From Pseudomonadota bacterium (GTDB taxonomy: Bacteria > Myxococcota > JACRCW01 > JAFGSX01), in contig JBDRCO010000112.1 of the NCBI GenBank assembly GCA_043821645.1, forward strand, positions 1 to 22,011: a DNA stretch of 22,011 nucleotides, written 5' to 3'. The notes under the pieces were generated by a model. It saw only the letters and a program-made list of their open reading frames with translations. It ran no database searches and was not told the DNA's origin. The translations under genes and the position numbers were made by a program. Positions 1 through 19,658 of the stretch are shown here, piece after piece (positions within the stretch are counted from its first letter, which is position 1; every line of letters begins with the position of its first letter).

Positions 1-27
1 GACTCAACCCATCTGATCAGCGCTGTA

Positions 28-53
28 GAATATTCGTCTGACACATATTCTGG
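28..53 (+). repeat. Junction motif copy (imperfect palindrome GAATAT-TC-GTC-T-GAC-AC-ATATTC followed by TGG)
   Basis: Palindrome centred on T39 with 9 of 11 arm pairs. Homology to 7997-8303 begins 2 nt after it. Confidence 0.7.
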
Positions 54-54
54 A

Positions 55-365
55 GGCCCACAGACAGGCCTCGCTGCTGTTCCGCTCCGGTGCGCGGGAT
101 ACTTCGTTTCCCCGATACAGCTACCGCCCACCACCACGCGACGGTCTCGACGACTGAACATCTCATTCACCAGAGACAGTCAGACTCGGCGCGCGTGAGT
201 TGCGATGGCCAGCATTGTGCGCCGCTGACAATCCCGTCGATGAGGCGTCCGAGCTCCGGTCTCCTGGGCTCTTCGTGTTGACTTCGCGTTGCCAGGAAGA
301 GTGCTCTCGAAGCGATTGGGAGGTCGGACCACGGCTGGCGGCTCGGCGAGGAATTGTTCGTGTGA
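55..365 (+). repeat. ~310-bp dispersed repeat, copy 1 (transposase 3' end plus trailer running into the junction motif)
   Basis: Aligns by eye with 7997-8303, with scattered substitutions and a small indel. Confidence 0.95.
56..157 (+). pseudogene. 3' remnant (33 aa) of a putative Y1/HUH RAYT-like transposase, copy 1
   Basis: Translates to AHRQASLLFRSGARDTSFPRYSYRPPPRDGLDD* with no start codon. Nearly identical to the longer remnant at 7950-8099. Family call is from recalled similarity to C-termini of myxobacterial Y1 transposases. Confidence 0.5.
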
Positions 366-378
366 CACCTTTTCTGGG
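351..378 (+). repeat. Junction motif copy GAATTGTTCGTGTGACACCTTTTCTGGG
   Basis: TGACACC-TTTT-CTGGG core at the end of the 310-bp repeat. Confidence 0.7.
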
Positions 379-430
379 TGTTTCGGGGGGTGGGGTGAGG
401 TTGGGGGCTATCCCAATGAGATCATTCGGT

Positions 431-512
431 GGATATTCGTATGACACCTAATCGGGGATATTCGTATGACACCTAATCGGGGAACAATATTCCTCTGACA
501 CCTTTTCCGGGG
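431..512 (+). repeat. Tandem junction motifs: two perfect 25-bp units GGATATTCGTATGACACCTAATCGG plus a third variant
   Basis: 431-455 and 456-480 are identical. 481-512 is GGAACAATATTCCTCTGACACCTTTTCCGGGG. Confidence 0.9.
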
Positions 513-718
513 TGGACGCTGGGTTTCGACGAGGAGACCTGCGGGTGGCACAGTGGGGCTGATACAAAATCGCCTGGATTCGACCCTGTTGTGGGGCCCC
601 GCCTTCACCGGCGAGGCTGCTCATCCTGGCGAGCTCGGAACAAGCCTCACCTGGGCCCCCCACAGCAAGCTCAAGCAAAGCGATTCAGTATGACACCTCG
701 CTCCCCGGTCGCGCATCG

Positions 719-2071
719 TCAGAGCTCCGGGATTCGCGCAGCGCTGGCAGAGGACACCTCGAGATCGACCTCGATCTCGGCGTCTGGGAAGACGTCCTTC
801 AGACAGGTCATCAGAGCTTCGTAGTCCCTGTAGCGGTGCCCCAGCCGAATGGACGTGAGCGGCACGCTGGACTGGTGAGGAAACTCCTCGACGTCGCGGC
901 CAAATACCTTGTCGCAGCCGTTGAAGACGATGCGCTTGAGCGAGACCAGGTCCGAGGAGCTCAGGATCCATCCGATGTCCGTGAGGCTCACCTCGGTGTA
1001 GGCCAGGTTGAGCAGCTTGAGATGCTTGAATTTTCCTGAAGCCGTAAAATCATAGAGGTCGCTCGTCGGTGTCCACGAAAGATCGAGCTCTTCCAGCGCG
1101 TCCAGGCTCGAGAAGTGCGCCAAGGTCCGCGGTCCCATCCAGCGCAGCGGGTTCGAGCGGAGGACCAGCGTACGAAGCTGCGCAAGAGACGTGGATGCGA
1201 CGAGCTGCTGGAGCCCGCCGGGGCTGATCGCGTTGCTGGCCAGATCGAGACGCCGGAGGCTCGGGGACAGGCTCGAGCTCTCGAAGCAGGCGGCGGCCTC
1301 GTCGTCGATGGCGCAGCGGGAGAGGAACAGGTCCGAGACTCGCGTCAGATGCGTCGAAGCCAGAAGCGCGGCGAGGCCTGCGCTCGTCAACTTGTTGCCG
1401 CTGAGCCTGAGCGAGCAGAGCGTCTGCAACCGTTCGCATCGAGCCAGGCGCTGCATGTCGCTCGCATCGAGAAAGTTGCCGCCGGAAAGATCGAGAGAAT
1501 CGAGGTGCGCCAGGAGCGGTGAGTCCAGCAGCGCCTCGAGCTCCGGAGTCCGAAGGCGGCAGTGGGCGAGGCGAAGGCTCGTGAGGTGGACGAGCGAGGG
1601 GGAGCTGGAGAGCGCCTCGAGCGCATCCTTTCGGAAGTCACCTGTGATCGACAGGCTCCCGACGCTGCTCAGCTGCGGGGCGTGAGACCACTCGCGCGCC
1701 TGGGCCCCCGAAGCGCTGAGCCTGCCGATCTCGATGTGTTCGAGCTGATCGAGATGCACGGCGGCACGAAGGGCGGCGACGTCCTTCTTTTTGAGCACGC
1801 CGACGTCCGGCTGTTCGGGATCGGGACACCTGAGGACCTTGCAGAGCGAGAGCGCGGGATGTCCCCCTTTCGGCTCGTGGAGCCAGCGCAGCGGGACGGT
1901 CCGAATCGCGCTCGGCCAGGCATCGAGCCGATCCCGAACAGGATCGATCAGCTGCTCGAGTTCAGCTCGCGTCGTGGTCGCACCGAGCAGTGCGGTCAGC
2001 TCGGACCAGGCCTCGCGGCTCGGGCCCTTCTCGACGCACCTGCAGATCGCGGCGTGCCTTTCGTGCTGCAT
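719..2071 (-). CDS. Leucine-rich repeat protein (RNI-like LRRs), 450 aa
   Basis: Repeated LxxLxLxxN/C units of ~28 aa (LTSLRLAHC, LDSLDLSGGN, LCSLRLSGN, LRRLDLASN, LRTLVLRSN). Purine-rich AGGAGAGGAG lies upstream of the ATG. Confidence 0.9.
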   Translation of the reverse strand: MQHERHAAICRCVEKGPSREAWSELTALLGATTTRAELEQLIDPVRDRLDAWPSAIRTVPLRWLHEPKGGHPALSLCKVLRCPDPEQPDVGVLKKKDVAALRAAVHLDQLEHIEIGRLSASGAQAREWSHAPQLSSVGSLSITGDFRKDALEALSSSPSLVHLTSLRLAHCRLRTPELEALLDSPLLAHLDSLDLSGGNFLDASDMQRLARCERLQTLCSLRLSGNKLTSAGLAALLASTHLTRVSDLFLSRCAIDDEAAACFESSSLSPSLRRLDLASNAISPGGLQQLVASTSLAQLRTLVLRSNPLRWMGPRTLAHFSSLDALEELDLSWTPTSDLYDFTASGKFKHLKLLNLAYTEVSLTDIGWILSSSDLVSLKRIVFNGCDKVFGRDVEEFPHQSSVPLTSIRLGHRYRDYEALMTCLKDVFPDAEIEVDLEVSSASAARIPEL

Positions 2072-2106
2072 GCGCGAGTCTCCTCTCCTTTTTTTTTAGG
2101 TGTGCT

Positions 2107-2125
2107 CCCCCAAAGAGGTGCCGCC
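2107..2125 (-). repeat. Junction motif copy, minus strand (GGCGGCACCTCTTTGGGGG)
   Basis: GGCACCT-pyrimidines-G run, facing the LRR gene. Confidence 0.5.
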
Positions 2126-2207
2126 ATGCGAGGTGCCCGCGACCTTGGCGCGGACGCCGTGCTCACTGGAAAACATAGCCTTCGGGCAGCGTGCAGTCGA
2201 TTACCCA

Positions 2208-2247
2208 GGAACAGGTACCTGGCACCTTCCCGCTCACCTTCCCTCGG
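2208..2247 (+). repeat. Junction motif copy AGGTACCTGGCACCTTCCC plus a degenerate second unit (CACCTTCCCTCGGG)
   Basis: Near-palindrome AGGT(A)CC-T-GG(C)ACCT. Confidence 0.7.
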
Positions 2248-2309
2248 GTCCCCGGCGCTTTGCCCCCGCACCCTTTTCAGCCAGACCACGCCTTCACGCA
2301 GCCGTCGTC

Positions 2310-2960
2310 CTAGGGGAAGAGCGAGCCGAGGCACGAGCCAAAGACCGCCATGACGACGCCGAATATCACCAGCACGGGCAGCCCGGCACGCAGCCAGTGA
2401 AACGCGGTCCACAGCTCTGGTTCGGCGCCCACCCACGCCACCAGCATTCTCCGGAACGGTGTCGGCGGAGAATCCAGGGGCGGAAGCTGAACCCGAAGCG
2501 CAGGGCCGGGGCAGCGCGCGAGGACCGCGTCGACGAGGGAGCGCACGACGAGACGCGTCTGCTGGACCCGGTCCTGGTTGCGGCCGTGGGTGCGCAGTGC
2601 GCCGAAGTCGAAGACGGCGCTCAGCAGGGAGCCATCGGCGGCCCAGTCCCAGATCGAGATGGCGTCGAGCTCCGCGATCGCACCAGCATCTGTCACCAGC
2701 CCGGCGTTCTGCACGGCGCGGCGGACGATGGCCTGGGCCTCCAGCAGCCTGTTGTTGGCCAGGGCCACCTCGGTGCGCTCGGCCTTGCCAAGCAGCCCGT
2801 CGAACGAGCTCGAACCCAGGAGGTCCAGGACCTGCCGGTCACGCAGGGTGCGTGTCTCGCCCTCGAGGCCGTACAGGATGCGATCGGCGCTGAGCAGCTC
2901 CTCGAGGCACTGCACCGCCAGCTCTCTCGACAGCTTCACGTCGGACGCGCTGTTCTCCAT
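2310..2960 (-). CDS. Hypothetical protein with C-terminal transmembrane helix, 216 aa, copy 1
   Basis: Reads MENSASDVK...LPVLVIFGVVMAVFGSCLGSLFP*. The paralog at 17118-17768 keeps the frame with conservative changes. Start codon inferred. Confidence 0.8.
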   Translation of the reverse strand: MENSASDVKLSRELAVQCLEELLSADRILYGLEGETRTLRDRQVLDLLGSSSFDGLLGKAERTEVALANNRLLEAQAIVRRAVQNAGLVTDAGAIAELDAISIWDWAADGSLLSAVFDFGALRTHGRNQDRVQQTRLVVRSLVDAVLARCPGPALRVQLPPLDSPPTPFRRMLVAWVGAEPELWTAFHWLRAGLPVLVIFGVVMAVFGSCLGSLFP

Positions 2961-3053
2961 CACAGACCTTTCGCTGGGCCCGCGAGCTCGGGCGCGTTGC
3001 ACACCGGGCAGCGAGGGGTGGCGAGAGCCGGTCCCCGCCGAGGCCATGGCCCG

Positions 3054-3077
3054 CCCCGGGAACGGTGCCACCCGGTT
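3054..3077 (-). repeat. Junction motif copy, minus strand (AACCGGGTGGCACCGTTCCCGGGG)
   Basis: Matches GGGTGGCACCTTTCCGGGG. Homology with the 17.1-17.86 kb copy ends at ~3052, just inside it. Confidence 0.75.
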
Positions 3078-3168
3078 GTCATACTGCAAGGACCACGCAT
3101 CCTCCACCCATGCCAATGATCGGGCCAGGGCGCTAGTGTATGGGTCCGGTGATCGCGGGAGGTGGCAA

Positions 3169-5391
3169 ATGTGTGCAGTCCGCATTGGCAGGGACGGTCA
3201 GCGCATCCTGGACGCGGCCCAGCGCTTCGAGGCGCAGGCGCGCGTCGGTAGCGACGACGTCAAGGCCCTGGTCGACCTGGCGCAGGCCAACGCCCGGGCC
3301 TCTGCCGGTGAGCGCGCCGCACTGAAGCAGGTGCTGGCTCGCTATTCGGACAAGCTGGAGCCCGACGCGCGCGCGCGGCTCGAGGGCTACCTGGGCATGA
3401 CGAGCGCCGCCGTGCGCAACCTGGTGCACGCGCTCGAAGCCGACGACGGCGTGGTCGACGCACGCGACGCCGGCAAGCTGGCCGAGCTGGTCACCAAGGA
3501 CGGCCGCATCACCTCGCGCGAGAAGTACTCGCTGGGTGCGGCGCTGATCGCGGCCAAGATGACGCCCGAGGCGGCGGCGGCCGTGCGCGCGCTGCAGGCC
3601 GGCGTGCGGCCCGGCCCCGCGCTGGTGGCCCTCGGCACGGTCGGTGGGCTGGACATCGCCCTGCACCCGGCCGGCTACTTTGGTTTTGCCGCGGATCGCG
3701 CCGACGCGCCGACGACCGGCGTTGCCGGCACGCCGCACGGCAGCGAGGCGCTGGCCACCCGCCTGTACTGCGGCGCGCGCCTGATCGCGGCCGACCCTTC
3801 GCTGCTCGCGCGCGTCGATGGGGCGGCCCAGCGGCAGCTCGTCGCCCACCTGGTGCGAGCCGCCAGCCACGGTGGCGACGTCGAGACGTCGGCGCCGGGA
3901 AGCGTGGCGTCGCGCAAGCTGCGCTACGGTGCGGCCGGCGTGCTGGCTGCCTGCGTGCGCAGCGGGGTACAGCGCGAGGCCGCCGTCGACGGGCTGCTCG
4001 GGATGGTCCACAACGAGCGCGACCGGCCGCTGCTCGCCTTCGTCTACCACCAGCTCGCGGGCGCCACCGATCTGAACCCGGCGCAGCGCAGCGCGCTCGA
4101 CGCGCTCAAGGTCCGCGTGCTGCGGCAGGCGCCGCCCTACGAGGGCTGGTTCAAGGACGGCAACACGCAGCTCAACGTTCGCCACTACATCCACGAGGAG
4201 TACTGGAACCTGTGGGTGCCCGAGTACCGGCGCCTGGGCTTCCAGGAGACGCCGCAGCCGGGCGGCGCCATCCTCTTCGAGCGCGAGTACAAGGACCCCC
4301 AGGGGCAGAACCCGCCGACCCGGGTCTCGGTGCTGGTGCACAGGACCGAGAAGGACATCTTCCGCGACATGGACGACTCGAAGACCCACATCGAGTGGTA
4401 CTCGGGTCACTCGAACCTGGGCGGCAACGTCGAGTACGCCCTGCGCAACGGGCCCGCTGCGGCCAGCGGCGACAAGTGGATCCTCAACTGGATGTGCCGC
4501 GGCTTCCAGGTGCACTCCGACGTCACCCGGCGCTACCCCGACGCCCACTACACGACGACGACGATCTCGCCCGCGGGCGGCAACGGACAGCTCCTGATCG
4601 ACGAGGTGTTCCGCGGCGTGGCGGCGCGCGCGAGCTACGCCGACATCCGCCGTGGCGTCGAGGCCCGGGACCGCCAGAACCCGCGCGGCACCTACCTGTT
4701 CCCCGACGATCCGCGCACGCTGGCGCTGCTCGACTATGACGGCGACGGCAAGGCCGACGCGGGCCCTGCCGGCGCCGACCCCCTGCTCGACGCGGCGCTC
4801 AACAACCCCGACCGCGAGCGCTGGGATCTCAAGCCGCGGCCGAGCACCCTCGACGTCGACGAGCTGCGCGGCGAGAAGGTGTTTCACGCGGTTAACTTCG
4901 CCAACACCCTGGTCCACTACCACAACGAGTACAGCCCGCACCGCCCCGGCATCGGCAAGGCCTACGACGACCACATCGTGTCGGGCGGCTGGTTCGACGA
5001 CGGCAGCGACACGCCGGTGCGGGTCCAGCCCAGGCGGGTCGACGGCCAGGACTTCTTCGAGGTGCAGGTCAACGCGCGCTTCGCCGACCAGTCGGCCGAC
5101 GCGGTGGGCGCCCTGGTGCAGTACGAGCTGTTCCTGCACGCGGTGGCCGAGGAGCGCGGCGGCTCCCCCACCGCCGAGGACAGGCTGCGCGGCCTGGTCT
5201 TTGCCGGCGAGTACCTGAGCTACATGTACTGCAGCTGGAACGAGATGGACGCGGTGCTGCGGCGCCTGGGCGAGCGCGCGGGCTTTGCCGGCGTGAACGC
5301 CGAGAAGGTGCGGCGGGCCATCGACAGCGACGGCTCGGGCTACATCACCGACGCCCAGGTCGCCGCGCTCGGCCGCATCCTCGGCGTCTGA
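3169..5391 (+). CDS. Hypothetical 740-aa protein with possible caspase-fold His-Cys dyad and Ca-binding loops
   Basis: GGAGGT RBS before ATG 3169 and strong GC3 bias. Contains IEWYSGHS...ILNWMCRG, DYDGDGKAD and DSDGSGYI. No signal peptide. Confidence 0.85.
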   Translation: MCAVRIGRDGQRILDAAQRFEAQARVGSDDVKALVDLAQANARASAGERAALKQVLARYSDKLEPDARARLEGYLGMTSAAVRNLVHALEADDGVVDARDAGKLAELVTKDGRITSREKYSLGAALIAAKMTPEAAAAVRALQAGVRPGPALVALGTVGGLDIALHPAGYFGFAADRADAPTTGVAGTPHGSEALATRLYCGARLIAADPSLLARVDGAAQRQLVAHLVRAASHGGDVETSAPGSVASRKLRYGAAGVLAACVRSGVQREAAVDGLLGMVHNERDRPLLAFVYHQLAGATDLNPAQRSALDALKVRVLRQAPPYEGWFKDGNTQLNVRHYIHEEYWNLWVPEYRRLGFQETPQPGGAILFEREYKDPQGQNPPTRVSVLVHRTEKDIFRDMDDSKTHIEWYSGHSNLGGNVEYALRNGPAAASGDKWILNWMCRGFQVHSDVTRRYPDAHYTTTTISPAGGNGQLLIDEVFRGVAARASYADIRRGVEARDRQNPRGTYLFPDDPRTLALLDYDGDGKADAGPAGADPLLDAALNNPDRERWDLKPRPSTLDVDELRGEKVFHAVNFANTLVHYHNEYSPHRPGIGKAYDDHIVSGGWFDDGSDTPVRVQPRRVDGQDFFEVQVNARFADQSADAVGALVQYELFLHAVAEERGGSPTAEDRLRGLVFAGEYLSYMYCSWNEMDAVLRRLGERAGFAGVNAEKVRRAIDSDGSGYITDAQVAALGRILGV

Positions 5392-5407
5392 AGCTCGCGC
5401 TCCCCTG

Positions 5408-5445
5408 AACAGGTGCGTGGCACCTGAACTGGGCACCTGAACTGG
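5408..5445 (+). repeat. Junction motif AGGTGCGTGGCACCT with a perfect 13-bp tandem duplication (GGCACCTGAACTG x2)
   Basis: 5419-5431 equals 5432-5444. Starts 17 nt after the stop of the upstream gene. Confidence 0.8.
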
Positions 5446-5485
5446 TGTGTGGGTGAGATCGAGGGGGCCAAGCGACGAGAACTAT

Positions 5486-5520
5486 TGGATTGATAAGTGG
5501 GTGGCACCTTTCCTGGGGGA
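5486..5520 (+). repeat. Junction motif copy TGGATTGATAAGTGGGTGGCACCTTTCCTGGGGGA
   Basis: 31/35 identical to 12073-12107. Confidence 0.85.
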
Positions 5521-5585
5521 GCCTTGGGACAGCCACGACCGTCCGCCGATGCGCGCGCGCCGCTGCTGAAGCCGCGTCCAGACCG

Positions 5586-6011
5586 CTAGTTGCAGCCGAC
5601 GTCGCCGAAATCCGTCGGCCCGCACAGCGTCTTGCCCTGCTGCACGCAGTCCTTCTGAAGCTGCCACGTGCCGCCGACGCACTTGAGTTCGATCTCGGGT
5701 CGGGTCGAGGAGCAGGCATACTTGCCCAGACTGGTGCAGGCCTTGCCTTCCTCGGCCATGGCGTACAGCTCGGGGAAGTCTCCACAAAGCACCTGGTCGT
5801 CGGTGAAAGCGTCGTTGCAGCCCACATTCTCGACGCAGGCGCCGTAGCCCACCCAGGTGCCGCCCTCGCAGATGAGCAGCGAGTGATCGCGTCCGTTGGC
5901 GACGCCACAGCGATTCTCATCATCGCTCATGCAGGGCTGGCCCGCCTCGGGTGCACAGAGACACGCGGAGAAGGGCAGGACAGCCAGCAGATACATCAGC
6001 TTCTTGTTCAC
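5586..6011 (-). CDS. Cys-rich putative lipoprotein, 141 aa
   Basis: GGAGG before GTG start. Signal/lipobox-like N-terminus MNKKLMYLLAVLPFSAC. Two CxGGTW-type Cys-rich repeats. Confidence 0.8.
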   Translation of the reverse strand: MNKKLMYLLAVLPFSACLCAPEAGQPCMSDDENRCGVANGRDHSLLICEGGTWVGYGACVENVGCNDAFTDDQVLCGDFPELYAMAEEGKACTSLGKYACSSTRPEIELKCVGGTWQLQKDCVQQGKTLCGPTDFGDVGCN

Positions 6012-6155
6012 GAACGCCTCCGCGGACAGACTGAGTTCGCCAGACCACAGCGACGCACCCTGGGATGCACGTCGGCGATGTTGTCGCACCAGACGCAGCC
6101 GCGGGAAGCAAGGCCCCGCGACACGGCGCGCGCGCGATCCTGCTAGCATGGCTCC

Positions 6156-6703: not shown

Positions 6704-6753
6704 GTCCGTCCGGACCTGTGCCGGACGGACGAAGGTCTTCCCGAAAGACCTTC
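6704..6753. other. Two abutting perfect hairpins downstream of prxU
   Basis: GTCCGTCCGG-N7-CCGGACGGAC (10 bp) followed directly by GAAGGTCTT-N5-AAGACCTTC (9 bp). Confidence 0.7.
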
Positions 6754-12942: not shown

Positions 12943-13953
12943 ATGCGACGCATTCGAGCCAAGCCTTCAGAGTTTCTTGTGGTGAGCCGCAACGGCCTGC
13001 TGCGCAATGTGGGACTGGGCGGGCGCGCCTGGCTGTGGCCTGGCGTGGCCGCGGTGCGCGTACCTGGCAGCAAGCAGGAAACCCTGTTCGCCATGACCCA
13101 GGAGACCCGCGACGGCATCCCTCTGCGCTTCAAGGGTGAGGTGCAATTTCGTGTCGTGGATCCGGTGCAGGCGGCGGCCTGCTTTGATTTCGGTGACAGT
13201 GCCGGCCTCGAGCAGCTCAAGAACATGGTGTGCCACGTGTGCCTGGGCGAGCTGCGCGACCTCGTGTCGCACATGACCTTGCAGGACTGCGTCGAGGGGC
13301 GAAAGTCGACCTTGGCCCAGGGGGTGGCCACGGCTCTGTCGCGGGTGGCCGGAGCGGATCCAGGCGCGGGGACTGGCTGGGGGATCGCGGTAGAGCTGGT
13401 GCAGGTGGCGCAGGTGTTCATCGTCGATGACGATCTGCGGGCACAGCTCGAGGCGGAGCTCCGGGACGAAATCGCGGCGCGCAGCGAGCGCTCCCACATC
13501 GACCTCGAAGAAACCCTGGCTCAGGCGCGGAATAGTTCTCAGCAGCGTTTGCTGGTTCAGCAGTTGGAGGCGGATCGGGCACAGCAGCAGGCCGATCTCG
13601 AACGCCTGCACCTGGAACGTGGCCTCGAACGTGAGCGTATTCTCAGCGCCGCGCCCGTACGCCAGCTCGAGCTCGAAAGACAGAGCGACCTGATGGAACT
13701 CGAGATTGCCGTGCGGCGTCTGGCCAATCGCTTGCGCCAGCTCGAGGTCGAGGGCGACATGCTGGACAAGCGCTCCCTGCAGGAACTGGAACGCGAGATC
13801 TTGCCCCTGCGCCAGGTACCCGAGGTGGCGCGTGCACTGGGCGGAATGTTCAACGGTGCGCACCTGTCTCTGGTCGGGGCGGACGATGCCGTGTTGACCA
13901 GTCTTGCTCCCCTGGTGGATCTGCTGGCGCAGCGCCTGCGGCCCGGAAGCTGA
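12943..13953 (+). CDS. SPFH/Band 7/flotillin domain protein, 336 aa
   Basis: GGAGG RBS. AKPSEFLV, TRDGIPLRFKGEVQFRVVDP and WGIAVELVQV, followed by a coiled coil. Confidence 0.88.
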   Translation: MRRIRAKPSEFLVVSRNGLLRNVGLGGRAWLWPGVAAVRVPGSKQETLFAMTQETRDGIPLRFKGEVQFRVVDPVQAAACFDFGDSAGLEQLKNMVCHVCLGELRDLVSHMTLQDCVEGRKSTLAQGVATALSRVAGADPGAGTGWGIAVELVQVAQVFIVDDDLRAQLEAELRDEIAARSERSHIDLEETLAQARNSSQQRLLVQQLEADRAQQQADLERLHLERGLERERILSAAPVRQLELERQSDLMELEIAVRRLANRLRQLEVEGDMLDKRSLQELEREILPLRQVPEVARALGGMFNGAHLSLVGADDAVLTSLAPLVDLLAQRLRPGS

Positions 13954-14046
13954 GTGCGGGCGCTGGGGGTGGACTGCGCTGGAGGGAGTCGTCTGGAAAG
14001 ACGACGGGAAGAAAAGTGAGGACTCCCGTCAGCGCCGTCGCGACCC

Positions 14047-14157
14047 TCATCTCGCCGTGAAGTACTGCCCCTCGAGGTCAATGGTGTAGTCCACGTCGAC
14101 GCTCGGTGCCGTACCCGCAACCAGGAACTGGTGAACCAGGACCTGCTTGCCTGAAGA
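14047..14157 (-). pseudogene. Orphan 3' gene fragment cut at the MITE-like element
   Basis: SSGKQVLVHQFLVAGTAPSVDVDYTIDLEGQYFTAR* with GC3-rich codons and no start. The 5' end abuts 14159. Confidence 0.45.
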
Positions 14158-14158
14158 A

Positions 14159-14293
14159 GGGGTCTGGCACTTACAATTACATTTTATTTATCAATCATTA
14201 CTATTTGTTATGCTGTCGTCTCGCGTTTTGTTGCATCTACCTTGACGAGCAAAAATCTGCATCCGGAAATTGTAATAGTAAGTGCCAGTCCCC
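14159..14293. mobile_element. 135-bp AT-rich MITE/REPIN-like element with 23-bp terminal inverted repeats related to the junction motif
   Basis: Left GGGGTCTGGCACTTACAATTACA versus right (reverse complement) GGGGACTGGCACTTACTATTACA, 21/23 identical. Confidence 0.75.
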
Positions 14294-14308
14294 CCCCGCT
14301 CCTCGACC

Positions 14309-15613
14309 TCAGGGAATGGGCATCGGACTCGCGGCCGGCTGGCGAAAAGCCAGGGCGAGGTACTTGAGATACCACCGTAGGCGGGGGTAGTTGACGCGGT
14401 CGCGCCGCGCGAGAAAGCGGACCAGAGCAAAGTAGTTGGCGTTGGTGTCGGCCGGGGCTGCATCAAACACCGGCTTGCCGCGAATGTGAGACATGATCGA
14501 CTTCGCTGCGTGGGCGTATGCCCATGGGGTCGAGGTGATCGTCTCCAGGACGCCAGGCGCGAGGATGAAGAGGTTCGGGGCGTCCAGCGCGAGAAAGTGC
14601 GAGCCACAGCGCCGGCCAATGTCGTCGAGATGCGTGAGCCGCGACAGGTCGCCCGCCTCCAGGTAGCTCAGATCCGTTGCGTAGCCTGTGCCCCACAGGA
14701 TGAGATCGGCGCGCCAAGACCGGCCCGAGGACAGCTGCACCGTGCTCCCTTCGATGCGCACAATCTCATCGCGGTGCCGCATGATCTGTCCCAGGTCCTG
14801 GATCATGCGCCGACGGCCAGGAATGAGCATCTGGTGCCCGAGGTCGATCGCTCTGTCGGGCAACAGCTCTTCGATACCCGCCTTCTTGTAGCGAGTGCGA
14901 AGATCCAGATTGGCTCGTTTGTTCATGGTCGCGAGCGAAGTGCCGAGCATCTGCATCTTCGCGAGCGCACGCAGGCTCGTGGCCTGATACTTCGGGCGCC
15001 GCGTGGGGAGCATCCACTTGAGCGAGCGATAGACCCAGGTGACGCTGCCCGCCTCCCGTTGCAGGCACAGCTCGAGGAGGTCGTATGCCGAGGCGCCGCC
15101 CCCGACCACGATCACGTCTTTTCCCGTGAGCTCGGCCGGATCCCGCAGCGCCGAGGAGTGATACTCGGTGAGCGTGGGGAGAACGCGCTCGACCTGTGGC
15201 ACCACGGGCCGATTGTGGCCACCTGTGGCGGCGATGAGGTATCTGGCGTGGAAGGAGTCGCTGCCGACACTCACCTCCCATCCGCCATCGCTCGGGCGAG
15301 CCGAACTCACCCGTGTGCGCAGGTGAATCGAGGGTGCAAGATCGAAACGCTCCACCCATGAGCAGATGTTGGCAAGGACGCTGGCTTGGTCCTCGCCAGC
15401 GATCGGCAAATCCCCCAGCGTCCAGTCCTCCTTGGGGATCTGCAGATCCTGCCAGGCGGGAAGATCGCGCCAGAGCCCGCCGACGGAATCTCCCTGCTCC
15501 AGCAGCACGGCATCGAGGCCGGCGTCCTTGGCGTACTTGAGGCTGATGAGGCCACCGATTCCGCCCCCGATGATGATCAGATCGTGCTCTCTCTCCACTC
15601 GCGTCGAGCCCAT
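14309..15613 (-). CDS. Flavin-containing monooxygenase-like NAD(P)/FAD-dependent oxidoreductase, 434 aa
   Basis: IIGGGIGG, GGLW, ATGG, YHSS, VVGGGASA and WGTGY motifs. GGGGAGGGG RBS. Confidence 0.9.
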   Translation of the reverse strand: MGSTRVEREHDLIIIGGGIGGLISLKYAKDAGLDAVLLEQGDSVGGLWRDLPAWQDLQIPKEDWTLGDLPIAGEDQASVLANICSWVERFDLAPSIHLRTRVSSARPSDGGWEVSVGSDSFHARYLIAATGGHNRPVVPQVERVLPTLTEYHSSALRDPAELTGKDVIVVGGGASAYDLLELCLQREAGSVTWVYRSLKWMLPTRRPKYQATSLRALAKMQMLGTSLATMNKRANLDLRTRYKKAGIEELLPDRAIDLGHQMLIPGRRRMIQDLGQIMRHRDEIVRIEGSTVQLSSGRSWRADLILWGTGYATDLSYLEAGDLSRLTHLDDIGRRCGSHFLALDAPNLFILAPGVLETITSTPWAYAHAAKSIMSHIRGKPVFDAAPADTNANYFALVRFLARRDRVNYPRLRWYLKYLALAFRQPAASPMPIP

Positions 15614-15731
15614 GAAATTCCCCTCCCCCAGCAGACAGAAAGCACGGAGCAGACGTGCAGCGTGGTTGTGGACGTGCTCAACACAGGATCCGTGATCATC
15701 TCAACGGTGGCCCCGTCGAGCAACGAGCAGA

Positions 15732-16130
15732 TTACTTGAAACTCGAATCGGTCTGCGTGGCCGCCCGGGACGGCGGCTCCTTGAGTTCCACGATCAGGAC
15801 GTGGGTATCGGTGGTGCCAACGTTCTCGCCGATGTGGACCTGGCGTTTCATCCAGATGACATCGCCGGTCTTGAACGCACGCGTCGACGAGGTCCCATCC
15901 GCGAAGGTGAGCTTTCTCTTGAAGGGCGCCAGCGCATAGAGAACGAAATCGCTGTGTTCGTGCTGATGGGTCTTGTCACCCGGTTTATCGTCATAGGTGA
16001 GGACGCGGACACGCTCGTTCTCCTGCACCAGCTTGTACTTGTCACCGTCCGTGACGAGGGGATCGGCGGCCAGCGCCACATGTTCCGCACCCAGAATCAT
16101 CAAGAACGATAGCAGGGAAAACTTGAACAT
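15732..16130 (-). CDS. Secreted cupin-domain protein, 132 aa
   Basis: Signal peptide, then ENERVRV...PGDKTHQHEH...GDVIW...HIGENVG. Confidence 0.85.
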   Translation of the reverse strand: MFKFSLLSFLMILGAEHVALAADPLVTDGDKYKLVQENERVRVLTYDDKPGDKTHQHEHSDFVLYALAPFKRKLTFADGTSSTRAFKTGDVIWMKRQVHIGENVGTTDTHVLIVELKEPPSRAATQTDSSFK

Positions 16131-16246
16131 CTCGGACACCCCCACACCGGTTTCACCGGCACCGCTGGAACCACTGCCTGCTACATACGCCGCGCCCCCC
16201 AAACAACAAGCGCGCTCAACCATCGCTTTCGAGCATCCAGGACCGG

Positions 16247-16276
16247 TGGATATGTGGCTGGCACCTTCGCGGGGGA
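16247..16276 (+). repeat. Junction motif copy TGGATATGTGGCTGGCACCTTCGCGGGGGA
   Basis: Same GATA-x-GTGG-x-TGGCAC...GGGGGA layout as 5486 and 12073. Confidence 0.8.
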
Positions 16277-16372
16277 CGGAGCGGACGTCGACGTCGACTC
16301 CCTCGTCCGGTGCGTCGCGTCGATGGCTCGGGCGGCTGCGCGCCTTGCTCGCTCTCAGTACATACCCAGGCC

Positions 16373-16927
16373 ATGGGAGTCCTCACCTTTGGCATCAACG
16401 TGACCCTGGACGGGTGCATCGATCACACGCAGGGGATCGTCGACGACGAGCTGCACGACTACTGGACGCGGCTCCTGGATCAGAGCGGGGCGATGCTCTT
16501 CGGACGCCACACCTACGAGCTGATGGAGGGGACCTGGCCCGCGGTGGCGCGCGAGGGCAAGGCGCCGCGCGCGCTGCGCGAGTGGGCACAGAAGCTCGAG
16601 GCGAAGGCAAAGTACGTCGTGTCGGGCTCGCGCAGCGACTTCCCGTGGCACAACACGACCAGGGTAGAGGGTGACCTGCGCGAGGCGATCGTGGCGCTGA
16701 AGGCGAAGACCGAGCGAGGTGTCCTCGTCGGTGCGCCCACGCTCGCGACGGCGCTCGAGGAGTGGGGGCTCATCGACGAGTACCGCCTCCTCGTTCATCC
16801 CGTCATCAGCGGCCGCGGGCCGACCCTGTTTCACGGCCTGTCGGGTACGCGGCAGCTCGAGCTCCTCTCGACGCAGCGGCTCCGGTCCGGCGCGCAGGCG
16901 CTGCACCTCCGTCGCCAGGTGGGGTGA
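16373..16927 (+). CDS. Dihydrofolate reductase family (RibD C-terminal domain) protein, 184 aa
   Basis: INVTLDG, LFGRHTYE, KYVVS and GLIDEYRLLVHPVISGRGPTLF. Confidence 0.92.
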   Translation: MGVLTFGINVTLDGCIDHTQGIVDDELHDYWTRLLDQSGAMLFGRHTYELMEGTWPAVAREGKAPRALREWAQKLEAKAKYVVSGSRSDFPWHNTTRVEGDLREAIVALKAKTERGVLVGAPTLATALEEWGLIDEYRLLVHPVISGRGPTLFHGLSGTRQLELLSTQRLRSGAQALHLRRQVG

Positions 16928-17065
16928 GCGCGGCAGAGGCCGGCTCTGTCCCCGCTGTCGTGAAGCCCGTGGCCTGGCAGCGACACTCGCCGGCCCCGCA
17001 AGATCCGCGCTTTTTTTTTCAACCAGCATGGGCGGTGACTCGTCGAGTCCGGCGAAGGAGCCACG

Positions 17066-17118
17066 GGAAGGTGCCAGGCACCTGTTCCGGGGAGCACCTT
17101 TATCGGGGGCACCTATTC
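17066..17118 (+). repeat. Junction motif with perfect palindrome AGGTGCC-A-GGCACCT and two further tandem units
   Basis: GGCACCTGTTCCGGG / GAGCACCTTTATCGGG / GGCACCTATTC, directly abutting the stop codon of the duplicated gene. Confidence 0.88.
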
Positions 17119-17768
17119 TAGGGGAAGAGCGAGCCGAGGCACGAGCCAAAGACCGCCATGACGACGCCGAATATCACCAGCACGGGCAGCCCGGCGCGCA
17201 GCCAGTGAAACGCGGTCCACAGCTCTGGTTCGGCGCCCACCCACGCCACCAGCATTCTCCGGAATGGTGTCGGCGGTGAATCCAGGGGCGGAAGCTGGAC
17301 CCGGAGCGCAGGGCCGGGGCAGCGCGCGAGGACCGCGTCGACGAGGGCGCGCACGACGAGCCGCGTCTGCTGGACCCGGTCCTGGTTGCGGCCGTGGGTG
17401 CGCAGTGCGCCGAAGTCGAAGACGGCGCTCAGCAGCGCGCCATCGGCGGCCCAGTCCCAGATCGAGATGGCGTCGAGCTCCGCGATCACACCGGCCTCTG
17501 TCACCAGCCCGGCGTTCTGCACGGCCCGGCGGACAATGGCCTGGGCCTCCAGCAGCCTGTTGTTGGCCATGGCCACTTCAGTGCGCTCGGCCTTGCCAAA
17601 TAGCCCGTCGAACGAACTCGAACCCAGGAGGTCCAGGACCTGCCGGTCATGCAGGGTGCGCGTCTCGCCCTCGAGGCCGTACAGGATGCGATCGGCGCTG
17701 AGCAGCTCCTCGAGGCACTGCACCGCCAGATCTCTCGACATCTTCACGTCGGACGCGCTGTTCTCCAT
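17118..17768 (-). CDS. Hypothetical protein with C-terminal transmembrane helix, 216 aa, copy 2
   Basis: 9 amino-acid differences from 2310-2960. Confidence 0.8.
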   Translation of the reverse strand: MENSASDVKMSRDLAVQCLEELLSADRILYGLEGETRTLHDRQVLDLLGSSSFDGLFGKAERTEVAMANNRLLEAQAIVRRAVQNAGLVTEAGVIAELDAISIWDWAADGALLSAVFDFGALRTHGRNQDRVQQTRLVVRALVDAVLARCPGPALRVQLPPLDSPPTPFRRMLVAWVGAEPELWTAFHWLRAGLPVLVIFGVVMAVFGSCLGSLFP

Positions 17769-17943
17769 CACAGACCTTTCGCAGGGCCCGCGAGCTCGGG
17801 CGCGTTGCACACCGGGCGGCGAGGGGTGGCGAGAGCCGGTCCCCGCCGAGGCCATGGCCCCCCGGCGAGGTCATCAAGGCGTCGTCGTCCCGGCACAACA
17901 CGCCTCCTCGCCCTGTCGTCGCGAACCTGGCTCGCACCGACGT

Positions 17944-18309
17944 TCAGCATCTCATCTTGTCGCCGCCATGCGACCCCTTTTTGGCAGCACGACGCGCCAG
18001 GTGCTGCAGCGCCTCGTGCCGGCCGTGCAGCTCGAGGATCTGCCGGTACATCTTCTTGCCCTCGGCGAGCTGGTCCCTGGTCGGCGACGGGGTCTTGAGC
18101 TCTTCGTACTGTTGCTGCACCTGCTGCAGGCACTTCTCGCTCTGCGCGAGGGCCTCGGCCAGGCCGTGCTGCTCGACGAGCTGCAGGGCCTCGGCACGCA
18201 GCCGGGCCCGACGTCGGCGCCGCCGTGTCACCCCGATGGGGACGGACACCAACGAGACCGCAAAGGACAGCACGGCCAGGAAGAAGAACAGGTCCCGAAC
18301 AGCTTCCAT
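17944..18309 (-). CDS. Small membrane-anchored hypothetical protein, 121 aa
   Basis: N-terminal hydrophobic helix, then a poly-Arg stop-transfer and a helical tail. Confidence 0.7.
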   Translation of the reverse strand: MEAVRDLFFFLAVLSFAVSLVSVPIGVTRRRRRRARLRAEALQLVEQHGLAEALAQSEKCLQQVQQQYEELKTPSPTRDQLAEGKKMYRQILELHGRHEALQHLARRAAKKGSHGGDKMRC

Positions 18310-18345
18310 GGGCGGCCCTCGTCACGTCGAGCGGGAACGGGGACA

Positions 18346-18371
18346 GAGCCGACACATTTCTGGTGGCACCT
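18346..18371 (+). repeat. Left part of a 14-bp junction-motif array interrupted by IS3
   Basis: GACACATTTCTGGT then GGCACCT, followed by the IS. Confidence 0.8.
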
Positions 18372-18416
18372 TGGCCTTGCCCCGATTCGGTGGACACCTG
18401 ATAGAAGGAGTTCATC

Positions 18417-18701
18417 ATGGGAAGGCCGTCCAAATTCAGTGAGGAGTTCAAGCGTGAGGCCGTCAGGCTGCTCGAGGCCGGACAGTCGCTGGAGCAGGTC
18501 GCCGTGGACCTCGGCGTGGGTCACTCGTCGCTGTCACGGTGGAGGAGGCACTACGGAATGGTCATCGATGCGCCCACGCCTGCGGATGGCGACGAGCTCC
18601 GCGAGGAGAACGCTCGACTGCGCACGCGCGTCCGCGTGCTTGAGGAGGAGCGTGAAATCCTAAAAAAAGCCACGGCCTTCTTCGCGAAGGAAAGCAGATG
18701 A
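18417..18701 (+). CDS. IS3 transposase OrfA (HTH)
   Basis: KFSEEFKREAVRL...VAVDLGV...LSRW...EILKKATAFFAKES. AAGGAG RBS. Confidence 0.95.
   Translation: MGRPSKFSEEFKREAVRLLEAGQSLEQVAVDLGVGHSSLSRWRRHYGMVIDAPTPADGDELREENARLRTRVRVLEEEREILKKATAFFAKESR
18662..18669 (+). other. -1 programmed frameshift site A7G
   Basis: AAAAAAAG at the end of orfA, with orfB in the -1 frame. Confidence 0.85.
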
Positions 18702-19573
18702 GATTTGCTTTCATCGACGTGGAGAAGGCCAATCACGCGGTCGAGACGCTGTGTCGAGTCCTGCAGGTTTCGCGGAGCGGTTTCTACGCCTGGCAGAGCA
18801 GGCCAGAATCGGCTCGAGCCGTGCGCGACCGGCAGCTCACCGCGAAGATTCGCGTGTTCCATGCTCAGAGCCGCGGCCGATACGGCAGCCCGATGCTTCA
18901 CCGTGACCTGCGTGACGACGGAGAACGCGTTGGTCGCAAGCGTGTGGCCAGACTGATGAGGCAGCAGAACCTGGCAGGCCGGAGGAAGCGCCGATTTCGC
19001 CGGACCACGAACTCGGAGCACAAGCTTGCGATCGCTCCCAATCTGCTGGAGCGCCGATTTGACGCGGCGGCGCGCGATCAGGTGTGGGCGGCAGACATCA
19101 CCTACGTCCGCACCTGGGAAGGGTGGCTCTACCTCGCCGTCGTCATCGATCTGTACTCTCGACGCGTCGTCGGATGGTCCATGGCGAACCACCTGCGTAC
19201 CGAGTTGCCGCTGACGGCCATGCACCAGGCGCTGCTCCTCCGGCGCCCACCTGCCGGCCTCCTGCACCACTCCGACCGAGGGTGCCAGTACGCCGCCGAG
19301 GCCTACCAGCGGCTCCTGGCCAACCACGGCGTCATTCCGAGCATGAGCCGAAAGGGCAACTGCTGGGACAACGCGGTGGTCGAGAGCTTCTTCTCGACCC
19401 TCAAGGAAGAGCTCATCTACCGAGGCGCGTGGGCCACGCGCCGCGGCGCTGAGCTCGCGATCGCCGACTACATCGAGAACTACTACAACCGCCATCGACG
19501 ACACTCGTCGAACGGCTACGTGAGCCCAGTGAAGTACGAGAATCCAGGACTGGAGTTGAAGCGAGCAGCGTAG
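18698..19573 (+). CDS. IS3 transposase OrfB (DDE/rve)
   Basis: WAADITY, HHSDRGCQY and GNCWDNAVVESFF. Confidence 0.96.
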   Translation: MRFAFIDVEKANHAVETLCRVLQVSRSGFYAWQSRPESARAVRDRQLTAKIRVFHAQSRGRYGSPMLHRDLRDDGERVGRKRVARLMRQQNLAGRRKRRFRRTTNSEHKLAIAPNLLERRFDAAARDQVWAADITYVRTWEGWLYLAVVIDLYSRRVVGWSMANHLRTELPLTAMHQALLLRRPPAGLLHHSDRGCQYAAEAYQRLLANHGVIPSMSRKGNCWDNAVVESFFSTLKEELIYRGAWATRRGAELAIADYIENYYNRHRRHSSNGYVSPVKYENPGLELKRAA

Positions 19574-19603
19574 AAAACTGTCCACTGAAACGGGGCAAGC
19601 CCA

Positions 19604-19658
19604 CCTTTCCGGGGGCACCTTTCCGGGGCCACCTATTCGTGGGCACCTTTGTCGGGGG
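19604..19658 (+). repeat. Right part of the 14-bp junction-motif array
   Basis: CCTTTCCGGG / GGCACCTTTCCGGG / GCCACCTATTCGTG / GGCACCTTTGTCGGG. Confidence 0.88.

Follow-up and report, generated by a model that had tools for sequence, protein, structure and literature searches.

A short repeated motif in a contig of an uncultured myxobacterium is probably the end-repeat of RayT/TIRYT-like transposase genes (HUH, single-tyrosine or Y1) that form a clade in Myxococcota (we give this reading a probability of roughly 0.6), and the contig is then a repeat-colonised accessory region rather than a dedicated capture platform. The contig was analysed whole (22,011 nt; hereafter the window) and belongs to a metagenome-assembled genome of 7.07 Mb in 140 contigs.

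Form of the motif and its copies in the window

The core of the motif is a 14-nt unit, approximately TG(G/A)CACC-TTTCC-GGGG with a T-rich pentamer in the middle, which carries a 5' extension of 10-15 nt. Copies stand alone, in tandem runs, or as palindromic doublets. Beyond two remnants of Y1 units, the window carries about 20 such copies, and most of its intergenic gaps are taken up by them. Its features are as follows.

2-157, plus strand: 5'-truncated 3' remnant 1 of a RayT-like Y1 gene (tblastn, C128 protein residues 267-302, 78% identity); homologous part 47-154, stop codon 155-157
24-54, plus strand: degenerate type-A motif adjoining the truncation point of Y1 remnant 1
55-365, plus strand: duplicated right end of the Y1 unit (3' end of the gene and about 200 nt), 96% identical to 7997-8303
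348-511, plus strand: four type-A motif copies (348-378, 427-457, 452-482, and 481-511), the middle two forming a 25-nt tandem
556-696, plus strand: unrelated 135-nt miniature element with inverted ends of about 20 nt
696-711: motif-like GACACC..CCCCGG adjoining the right end of the 556-696 element
2101-2139, minus strand: tandem pair of motif units
2204-2235, no strand: palindromic doublet, a minus and a plus copy core to core
2310-3055, minus strand: duplicated 746-nt block (216-aa ORF and upstream DNA) with a counterpart of 96% identity at 17118-17863; on the right it ends within the outer CCCCGG of the 3054 motif copy
3054-3085, minus strand: motif copy in a gap between divergent genes
5399-5445, no strand: palindromic doublet with 13-nt tandem units (-12.1 kcal/mol, z -2.3); Logan contigs of one run have an extra 12-nt unit after 5417
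5486-5520, plus strand: type-B extended motif, 89% identical to 12073-12107
6826-6845, minus strand: weak motif-like sequence beside the peroxiredoxin stop codon, seen by eye only and unscored by the matrix
7918-7950, plus strand: motif copy adjoining the truncation point of Y1 remnant 2
7953-8099, plus strand: 5'-truncated 3' remnant 2 of a RayT-like Y1 gene (tblastn, residues 255-302, 90% identity)
8289-8303, plus strand: type-A motif broken off immediately before CACC, so that only its left half is present (351-378 compared with 8289-8320)
8304-8322, plus strand: 19 nt exactly as at the left end of the IS1111-like element in this genome
10136-10156, minus strand: motif copy without the G-run (15.1 bits)
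12073-12107, plus strand: type-B extended motif; a paralogous block on contig C63 ends in the motif at the same relative place
14159-14293, no strand: 135-nt miniature element whose 27-nt inverted ends match the TIRYT-like Y1 element of contig C32
16243-16277, plus strand: motif copy in a gap between divergent genes
17056-17123, no strand: palindromic doublet and two tandem units (-13.4 kcal/mol, z -1.85); the final unit, inside which the duplication begins, overlaps the duplicated ORF's stop codon
18346-18371, plus strand: two motif units, the second split by an IS3-family element
18372-19603, plus strand: IS3-family element (OrfA, OrfB) within a motif unit, with a 3-nt duplication, CCT, at 18369-18371 and 19604-19606
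19604-19658, plus strand: remainder of the IS3-split unit and three more 14-nt tandem units

A first-pass annotation of this DNA had listed 17 motif positions. Fifteen belong to one family, with those at 28 and 10136 degenerate, and the other two (14159 and 14293) are the inverted ends of the 135-nt miniature element, which belongs to another, related Y1 family. Its division of the window into blocks of 0.8-2.4 kb, each with 1-3 unrelated genes in either orientation, was correct. Single units formed no stable hairpin (folding z from -1.5 to +1.6), and only the doublets at 5395-5450 and 17056-17125, both of them fully palindromic, folded well.

Density and distribution of the motif

The motif was about 60-fold denser in the window than genome-wide. 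Its loose core, CACCT-N2-5-GGGG, had 13 occurrences in the window (0.59 per kb) and 354 in the whole genome of 7.07 Mb (0.050 per kb). A 12-nt weight matrix with a G-run rule, built from 17 window copies by coordinate, gave 94 matches in the genome, 16 of them in the window; these window counts are partly circular, since the matrix was trained on window copies. At 14 bits or more there were 39 matches, compared with 7 in a reversed-sequence control, and 12 of the 39 lay in the window. The motif is real and non-coding, as had been claimed: all 16 scored window copies fell outside coding sequence, one overlapping a stop codon, although non-coding DNA makes up 24.7% of the window. Beyond the window, 20 of 27 strong matches were outside coding-like ORFs, versus 74 of 400 random positions. 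A matrix copy was present in 10 of 18 intergenic gaps and in 0 of 18 in the reversed control, and by eye up to four more gaps have a copy (8289-8303 and 18351-18371, interrupted; 14159-14293, related; 6826-6845, weak). Strong matches were clustered, with 28 of 39 in contigs shorter than 25 kb that together form 9.3% of the genome, which contradicts the even genome-wide spread that the first-pass annotation had set against its own reading.

A strictly intergenic, clustered motif in iteron-like tandem arrays might serve a mobile element or regulon as operator, promoter, or terminator. This is very improbable, however: gaps between convergent (5399-5520 and 17056-17123), divergent, and tandem gene pairs alike contain the motif, in both orientations, and it is tied to Y1 gene ends. 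No T-run follows the motif hairpins, and an Rfam search found no family matching the motif. Less credible still is an assembly artefact, in which a repeat common to unrelated segments led the metagenome assembly to join them. The window makes up one entire contig among 140 and has repeats at its block borders, but motif copies share at most 16-17 identical bases with one another. Independent Logan contigs span the sites at 2101-2230, 5399-5520, 6826-7950, 10136, and 17056-17123, and pieces from other studies span 2055-2214, 5376-5633, and 15945-16409 with 0 differences.

Association of the motif with Y1 genes

A search of the genome with Pfam Y1_Tnp (PF01797) located four loci. Three of them, on contigs C128, C63, and C3, are intact full-length paralogues of one RayT-like Y1 family of about 300 aa; by tblastn the C128 protein matched C63 at 58% and C3 at 54% over its full length. 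Within the window it matched 7953-8096 at 90% and 47-154 at 78%, and these two 5'-truncated 3' remnants are all that the window has of such genes. With the intact genes on other contigs, the enzyme would have to act on the window in trans, as the first-pass annotation held. The HUH histidines H61/H63 and Y120 were invariant in an alignment of 12 family members. The nearest named match was NCBIfam 'REP-associated tyrosine transposase' (69.4 bits, under the 80-bit cut-off), the nearest PDB match was 4ER8 TnpA-REP (E 0.004), and relatives are labelled 'REP element-mobilizing transposase RayT' by JGI.

Inverted motif copies bracket all three intact genes, about 150-230 nt upstream and 200-300 nt downstream, giving a basic unit of about 1.35 kb whose G-runs face outward. 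The flanking copies are often short tandem runs, and each paralogue has its own motif variant. At both fully assembled Y1 genes (C63 and C3), motif arrays lie on the 3' side.

The gene-plus-motif design recurs in other Myxococcota families, with a near-identical motif beside their Y1 genes; the assignment of the motif to an HUH/Y1 system was upheld. At 7 of 20 homologous Y1 loci in other genomes, inverted repeats of 14 nt or longer flank the gene at distances that match, and the TGGCAC core with tandem G-run units also occurs at Y1 loci from genomes G081, G051, and G080. Genome G037 had 29 motif matches versus 0 in its control. Nucleotide similarity of G080 to the Y1 gene (74-80%) was restricted to the coding part, so the genes are old paralogues, which fits domesticated RAYT-type genes rather than active insertion sequences. 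In G051 the unit was found beside its single Y1 gene only; dispersal is therefore not general to the Y1 family. DNA-level matches to the only same-family genome, as sums of listed alignment segments, covered about 8% of the window and about 48%, 42%, and 23% of three control regions. By these alignments the region is poorly conserved in relatives; the motif marks this unstable region.

We propose that the Y1 enzymes bind the motif in trans and would cut and rejoin single-stranded DNA there. Such activity could spread copies locally, by preference beside existing ones, and cause rearrangements, and repeat-colonised, recombination-prone accessory regions of this kind would number at least eight, the window among them. 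Classical HUH Y1 enzymes recognise hairpins, and because single units fold poorly the cutting step is offered as a proposal. Local colonisation does not by itself explain the motifs on both sides of a low-GC RHS block on C3, nor the arrays 3' of both fully assembled Y1 genes.

Comparison with RAYT and TIRYT systems

The closest known kind of system is the TIRtron/TIRYT and REP/RAYT class. The concept is not beyond known biology, since RAYT and TIRYT genes with flanking repeat families are already described (PMC3733652, PMC6006769). The former includes RAYT-like genes with flanking non-REP inverted repeats and moderate repeat families occurring as dimers and clusters (PMC3733652). TIRtron/TIRYT (Di Nocera et al. 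2013, PMC3733652) largely equals TnpA-Y1 subclass 2.1 (Quentin et al. 2018, PMC6006769). The system studied here shares three features with it: a RAYT-like HUH/Y1 gene whose inverted repeats stand at fixed distances and are not GTAG-tagged hairpins; more than one diverged paralogue in a genome, every one with a repeat of its own; and repeat families of moderate size whose members occur singly, as dimers, or in clusters. The C32 element of the host, with its miniature derivative at 14159-14293, fits well, as it has Y---NP and its ends begin with GGGG. The main clade (C128, C63, and C3) differs in that it has Y---[H/N]G in place of the class-2 signature Y---NP, its ends are runs of the 14-nt unit, and Pfam detected no helix-turn-helix in the C-terminal half of the protein. 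The published GGGGWSAS consensus is matched in full by a single end, GGGGTCAC, to the left of the C128 gene. For TIRtrons, the portions available do not mention copies in dense arrays among accessory genes such as those seen here (PMC3733652, PMC6006769).

REP/BIME sequences with RAYT genes (REPtrons) are exemplified by E. coli TnpA-REP (PDB 4ER8) and Pseudomonas REPIN-RAYT (PMC5581495). The likenesses are extragenic repeats in inverted orientation around a Y1 gene, doublets and clusters, repeats that are hot spots of IS insertion, and paralogues that are not near-identical. Copy number here, in the tens, resembles that of RAYT groups 1 and 4, for which 12-14 occurrences of the flanking 16-mer are given (PMC5581495). 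Unlike REP sequences, single units here are not palindromic hairpins and the copies read had no GTAG tag; copies number tens, not hundreds, and are concentrated in few regions, and the protein is twice as long and under the family cut-off.

Rearrangements and the case for gene capture

The first-pass annotation proposed that the enzyme repeatedly adds foreign DNA at the motif. In such a reading, Y1 enzymes would move DNA blocks or join them at the motif, and arrays of passenger genes, in part foreign, would accumulate beside Y1 genes, an action like that of integrons or dif modules with HUH chemistry. We consider this unlikely, though clearly the strongest of the alternatives weighed here. On C63, the intact Y1 gene has on its 3' side single-gene blocks with motifs between them, in the order lipase, 434-aa ORF, MFS transporter, 276-aa paralogue, and the array is set between ABC genes. 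On C3, a motif-bounded block of 42-58% GC with an RHS-repeat gene also lies 3' of an intact Y1 gene. Similar blocks occur on C105, C82, C67, C54, and C77, and on contig C65 of G037 in the absence of a Y1 gene. In both cases compared (G000 C63 with G001, and G037 with G105), synteny with the nearest relative ended at the array edge, but these relatives are distant (70-74% identity) and breaks are common at such distances anyway. A RibD_C gene shared 86% DNA identity with a genome from another family, limited to 16317-16930, but the homologous locus of G012 has no motif. One Logan contig joined 2235 to 16933, with only 30 nt on one side of the joint.

The annotation had also stated that duplications and truncations end at the motif. 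Single cases agree: the Y1 remnants (55/7951), 365/8303, 3055, 17118, and the IS3 element at 18372-19603. That 5'-truncated Y1 and IS110-type genes adjoin motif copies is a point in favour of capture. In a strict test, 5 of 45 repeat-segment ends were near a scored motif; random positions gave 1.4 expected (54 of 5000 trials reached 5), but random intergenic positions gave 5.3 expected, so there was no significant excess. Junctions fell at different places inside the motif (after GGGG, before CACC, or between T-run and G-run), and motif orientation relative to genes or blocks was inconsistent. GC3 of window genes was ordinary (0.74-0.95; genome mean 0.834, sd 0.045). No excision or circle junctions, for which a search had been suggested, were seen in Logan contigs. 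Identical pieces of the locus occurred in four studies, and because 0-difference pieces, some spanning motif sites, recurred in runs of three other studies (2016-2019), the array is not visibly turning over. Accretion of foreign genes by the motif is thus not supported as stated, and the HUH/Y1 interpretation as a whole is partly supported.

Like an integron cassette array, the window has short blocks of unrelated genes with a semi-palindromic site between them, and the C63 and C3 arrays adjoin a recombinase-like gene. Unlike in integrons, sites and genes have mixed orientations, and a scan of 20 window ORFs detected no tyrosine-recombinase integrase domain, in line with the first-pass annotation. 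The attC hairpins of integrons span 57-141 nt; the sites here are runs of 14-35 nt. Short alternating recombination sites also delimit small modules in the dif (pdif) modules of Acinetobacter plasmids and the dRS3/NIME arrays of Neisseria, which resemble the arrangement here but depend on different enzymes, XerCD and Piv/IS110-type, respectively.

Insertion elements at the motif

The motif is an insertion site for one IS1111-like and one IS3-like element. Transposase_20 genes of the IS1111-like element lie on contigs C122 and C109, and all nine of its ends found adjoin the motif (left ends at three contig ends, right ends at six places). Every copy is at a contig end, so a complete one is unassembled. 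Motifs in the window (at 8304-8322) and on C3 contain left-end fragments of 14-19 nt, a 5'-truncated IS110-type copy on C82 adjoins a motif, and the reconstructed target is the centre of a palindromic doublet. The same observations would suit a reading in which this DEDD, guide-RNA-type recombinase, not the Y1 enzyme, causes the rearrangements and the motif is its preferred target. That is improbable, since neither the bracketing of Y1 genes by the motif nor the joint conservation of motif and Y1 family in genomes of other families would be explained. IS110/IS1111 elements are reported to insert into REP sequences (Tobes & Pareja 2006, PMC1525189; ISPpu9, PMC12288879; seekRNA, PMC11187229), and pre-existing repeats are known targets of such elements (PMC1525189, PMC12288879). 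The element here resembles those described: its inverted repeats are subterminal, its 3' end is long and non-coding, and it is found only beside the motif; it is a guest in the motif and leaves the motif's origin unexplained. The flanks of the IS3-family element, when joined, restore a perfect motif unit.

Gene content of the window

The 22,011-nt window is one entire contig (C112) of genome G000, a 7.07-Mb assembly of 140 contigs with 67% GC, and the relatives of its encoded proteins are found in Myxococcota. Its 20 ORFs were compared with Pfam. An integrase domain was absent from all 20 ORFs, in agreement with the initial proposal that the locus is not an IntI integron, and no intact Y1 transposase was found among them. 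A tRNA search found none, and Rfam at E ≤ 0.1 returned only a spurious miRNA match.

Predicted genes of the window
LRR protein (Pfam)
216-aa ORF, two copies
740-aa ORF
Cys-rich secreted proteins, two
6845-7447, minus strand, peroxiredoxin (AhpC/TSA)
564-aa repeat protein
276-aa ORF, with a paralogue on contig C63
Crp-type regulator
SPFH protein
Flavin monooxygenase
16317-16930, RibD_C reductase
Small ORFs
IS3-family gene pair, within the element at 18372-19603

In the peroxiredoxin gene, a TGA codon lies in frame exactly where the catalytic cysteine would be (FTFV-TGA-PTE). With this codon taken as selenocysteine, the AhpC/TSA match is complete (E = 1.9e-36), and a predicted hairpin of unremarkable z-score includes the UGA and extends 3' of it. 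A dispersed repeat of ~420 nt (6402-6823), represented by ≥10 partial copies that often lie at contig ends, breaks an ORF at 6402, of which an intact relative is present on C139; no Rfam family matched this repeat. Downstream of a Cys-rich gene, a 42-nt tandem repeat occurs three times (21718-21850).

Form and distribution of the motif

The first-pass annotation had described a repeated semi-palindromic motif that, in its extended form, was found only between genes. The motif exists, and its core is a 14-nt unit, approximately TG(G/A)CACC followed by a T-rich pentamer and GGGG, to which longer forms add 10-15 nt at the 5' side. Copies occur solo, in tandem, or as head-to-head palindromic doublets.

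Motif copies in the window
24-511, variant type A
5486, 12073, and 16243, variant type B
427-482, 5419-5445, and 19604-19658, tandem copies
2204-2235, 5399-5438, and 17056-17092, head-to-head palindromic doublets

The loose core (CACCT-N2-5-GGGG) occurred 13 times in the window and 354 times in the genome. With a weight matrix derived from 17 copies in the window, the genome had 94 matches, 16 of them in the window; at ≥14 bits, 39 matches remained (12 in the window), and the reversed-sequence control had 7. These window counts are partly circular because the matrix was trained on window copies. All 16 window matches were non-coding, as claimed; non-coding DNA makes up 24.7% of the window. Outside the window, 20 of 27 strong matches lay off coding-like ORFs (74 of 400 for random positions). 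By the matrix, 10 of the 18 intergenic gaps held the motif, compared with 0 of 18 in the control, and up to four additional gaps had interrupted, related, or weak copies when inspected by eye. REP and REPIN sequences are extragenic and reach high copy number across the chromosome. The motif copies are extragenic; only ~30-50 stand above background, and their spread over the genome is uneven, with 28 of the 39 strong matches in contigs <25 kb (9.3% of the genome).

Stable folding was confined to the two fully palindromic doublets, 5395-5450 and 17056-17125 (z = -2.3 and -1.85, respectively), and nine single-unit or tandem stretches gave z-scores of -1.5 to +1.6. Hairpin recognition of single units is therefore unsupported, since these have no stable fold. 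A sigma-54 promoter reading of the motif was set aside because its GG-N10-GC spacing, judged by eye, is wrong for such a promoter. Broader searches were at chance level: a 15-base pattern gave at least 120 single matches in unrelated phyla among public genomes, and a 20-base pattern gave one coding-region match in metagenomes, with no second copy nearby. Over the genome, coding matches swamped the signal of palindrome regular expressions, and a tandem-doublet scan (13 real, 4 control) yielded too few for use.

Two other G-rich repeats were observed. The stretch 11507-11835 comprises ~15 tandem copies of a 21-22-nt unit with GGTGCC and GGGG, and its paralogue on C2 (30216-30650) has motif copies on its flanks. 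A separate palindromic repeat of another REP-like family, ~20 nt long and built on a G-rich stem around GCCGAAC, is present in ~22-29 copies genome-wide; no gene was linked to it here.

Y1 transposase genes bracketed by the motif

Four genes of G000 match Pfam Y1_Tnp (PF01797). On C128, C63, and C3, inverted motif copies bracket intact Y1 genes, which upholds the suggested link to HUH/Y1 enzymes. The C128 gene (302 aa) has an inverted pair of type-A copies with G-runs outward: two reverse-orientation tandem units ~180 nt upstream and one forward-orientation unit ~200 nt downstream. Around the C63 and C3 genes the bracketing copies are of type B and form runs of two to four; the products of these genes are full-length paralogues of the C128 protein (58% and 54% identity, respectively, by tblastn).

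In the window, tblastn matched residues 255-302 of the C128 protein at 7953-8096 (90%) and residues 267-302 at 47-154 (78%). On the basis of these fragments, 55-365 and 7997-8303 represent two copies of the right end of a Y1 unit. Both are truncated on their 5' side directly behind a motif copy.

The C128 protein belongs to the HUH Y1 superfamily by its Y1_Tnp score (26.7 bits, above the gathering cut-off of 23), its HUH motif, and its tyrosine; H61, H63, and Y120 were invariant in 12 of 12 aligned relatives, in which the C-terminal half after the tyrosine motif is also conserved. Pfam at E ≤ 1 revealed no further domain. The sole NCBIfam match was to NF047646 ("REP-associated tyrosine transposase") at 69.4 bits, and this score, below the curated cut-off of 80, is one difference between the C128/C63/C3 clade and the RAYT class; similarity to E. 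coli TnpA-REP (PDB 4ER8) was detected at E = 0.004. The tyrosine motif of the clade is Y-x3-[H/N]-G in 12 of 12 sequences, unlike the Y---NP given for RAYT/TnpA-Y1 class 2 in the relevant section of PMC6006769, which the fourth Y1 protein (C32) does carry.

Conservation of the clade and its ends in Myxococcota

Of 201 genomes sampled from the phylum, 65 encode the clade of ~300-aa Y1 proteins, a count that takes in G000 and the unpublished G195, usually with several diverged copies each. Matches at E ≤ 1e-10 numbered 966 proteins; some of them, in Cystobacter and Archangium, are annotated as "REP element-mobilizing transposase RayT" or plain "transposase." Flanking inverted repeats of ≥14 nt at similar distances were found at 7 of 20 homologous Y1 loci in other genomes. 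Loci of G081, G051, and G080 that were read directly share the plan of the G000 units, with a short conserved stretch, a TGGCAC core, and then runs of GGCAC-N-GGGG units at their ends, and the type-B motif is matched almost exactly by one end in G080. Such near-identity at gene ends across families argues for a specific protein-DNA interaction, and the co-retained clade and motif may offer a directly testable case of one.

Dispersal of the motif varies by genome: in G051 the unit is found solely beside the single Y1 gene, and in G037 there were 29 matches compared with 0 in the control. The G080 paralogues have 74-80% nucleotide similarity that stops at the gene ends. The within-genome copies are old, a pattern that fits domesticated RAYT-type genes. 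An active insertion sequence was rejected as an explanation of the Y1 genes since the paralogues are old and their similarity is confined within gene ends.

Insertions and junctions at the motif

Two kinds of insertion sequence occupy the motif. An IS3-family element lies within a motif unit (18372-19603, flanked by the 3-nt duplication CCT), and joining its flanks rebuilds a perfect unit. An IS110/IS1111-type element, with Transposase_20 genes on C122 and C109, is nowhere fully assembled; nine of its ends were found, six right ends and three left ends, the latter at contig ends, and every one abuts the motif. By reconstruction from these ends, its target would be the center of a palindromic doublet. 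At 8304-8322, 19 nt of its left end stand in place of a motif's right half, and a 14-nt piece lies within a motif on C3. REPs have previously been described as targets of insertion sequences (PMC1525189, PMC12288879).

Duplications and truncations had also been said to start or stop at the motif. Individual cases are clear, including both Y1 remnants and a truncated IS110-type gene on C82. In a 746-nt duplication (2310-3055 and 17118-17863), one end per copy falls within a motif, between its T-run and its G-run; the position of the junction within the motif varies from case to case. A strict test was, however, unconvincing against an intergenic null: 5 of 45 repeat-segment ends lay ≤15 nt from a scored motif, where random positions would give 1.4 (at least 5 in 54 of 5000 trials) and random intergenic positions 5.3. 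Only two variants were seen among the Logan contigs: an extra 12-nt motif unit after 5417 in one contig of run X1, which thus differs from the assembly in the number of tandem units, and one contig that joins 2235 to 16933, with only 30 nt on one side.

Possible local rearrangement or gene capture

The motif is associated and co-conserved with Y1 genes, receives insertion sequences, and coincides with individual junctions. We infer that the motif may be bound by Y1 enzymes supplied in trans, which would cut single-stranded DNA at this site and rejoin it. Motif copies would thereby spread, chiefly beside existing ones, and deletions, duplications, and joins would follow. A weak point of such cutting is that single motif units form no stable hairpins.

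A more far-reaching explanation, close to the accretion of foreign genes proposed in the first-pass annotation, is that enzymes of the clade join DNA at the motif and in this way insert, excise, or shuffle small blocks of accessory genes, with arrays growing 3' of the Y1 gene. The layout of the arrays speaks for this proposal; motif orientation, GC3, and the strict junction test do not, and we consider it unlikely. Motif-separated arrays surround the intact Y1 genes on C63 and C3. The C63 array lies between ABC-type genes and consists of four motif-separated single-gene blocks 3' of the Y1 gene, and on C3 a motif-bounded block of 42-58% GC follows the Y1 gene.

Blocks 3' of intact Y1 genes
C63, lipase
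C63, 434-aa ORF
C63, MFS transporter
C63, paralogue of the 276-aa gene of the window
C3, 62400-66400, low-GC block directly 3' of the Y1 gene, with ORFs of 850 aa (RHS-repeat), 283 aa (weak transglycosylase match), and 145 aa

Five other small contigs, C54, C67, C77, C82, and C105, have a similar architecture, and in G037 three motif runs delimit non-Y1 genes; a 301-aa ORF of that array, considered as a Y1 candidate, is not a Y1 gene. Synteny ended at the array edge both for C63 against G001, the only genome of the same family among those compared, and for G037 against its congener G105, although both comparisons rest on distant relatives. Only ~8% of the window matched G001, which belongs to another genus, versus ~48%, ~42%, and ~23% of three control regions (sums of the listed segments). 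The RibD_C gene (16317-16930) shares 86% DNA identity with G012, a genome of another family; recent transfer is likely because the other cross-family matches listed are far more distant. No motif lies near the G012 locus. Motif orientation follows no rule. Window genes have ordinary GC3 (0.74-0.95; genome 0.834, SD 0.045), which gives no support to a foreign composition. Short pieces with 0 differences, some across motif sites, occurred in runs from three other studies, so the array is not visibly in flux.

In at least two genomes the motif borders small accessory-gene blocks, one of them clearly foreign, and enzymatic joining of such blocks, if true, would be a new route of array assembly. 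Capture by the Y1 enzymes would then amount to a counterpart, with HUH chemistry, of what integrons or dif modules do, and the RAYT/TIRYT class, long without an explanation, would gain a role in the assembly of gene arrays. If the enzyme does not join DNA, the repeat family and the insertion sequences that target it fragment assemblies and mark flexible parts of myxobacterial genomes.

Relation to known systems

RAYT and TIRYT genes are common among bacteria, as are the repeats that accompany them. The G000 units resemble REPtrons in that a genome repeat flanks the C128, C63, and C3 genes in inverted copies, and differ from them in that single units are not stable hairpins and no GTAG tag was present in the copies read. 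They resemble TIRtrons in having a RAYT-like gene between inverted repeats other than REP hairpins. Published TIRtron/TIRYT traits are GGGGWSAS in the inverted repeat and, for subclass 2.1, a C-terminal HTH in the protein; only the C128 left end reads GGGGTCAC, and the remaining motif copies read GGTG(C/T)CA. Unlike both TIRtron/TIRYT and REP/RAYT systems, the clade has ends made of non-palindromic 14-nt tandem units, and motif copies are densely placed between accessory genes. IS200/IS605 elements are marked by several near-identical copies with identical ends, and the Y1 paralogues differ from them in sharing only 54-58% protein identity. The window differs from an integron in lacking an IntI-type integrase among its 20 ORFs, on a Pfam basis. 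Among known systems, the TIRtron/TIRYT and REP/RAYT class (PMC3733652, PMC6006769, PMC5581495) comes nearest.

A second Y1 family and miniature elements

Two sites assigned to the motif, 14159 and 14293, are indeed repeat sites, but they belong to a related second Y1 family and not to the main motif.

14159-14293, 135-nt AT-rich miniature element with 27-nt inverted ends

The same 27-nt ends flank the fourth Y1 gene (C32), and ~10 miniature elements with ends of this type occur elsewhere in G000. The C32 protein (304 aa) has HYH and YVHLNP motifs and scored 63.8 bits on NF047646 (cut-off, 80), besides a weak IS200 match (13.6 bits). The gene and its miniature elements fit the published TIRtron/TIRYT description well. 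Another 135-nt miniature element (556-696), with inverted ends of ~20 nt, is unrelated to the motif; ~20 further copies or pieces of it are present in G000 and several in G001, and its right end adjoins motif-like sequence.
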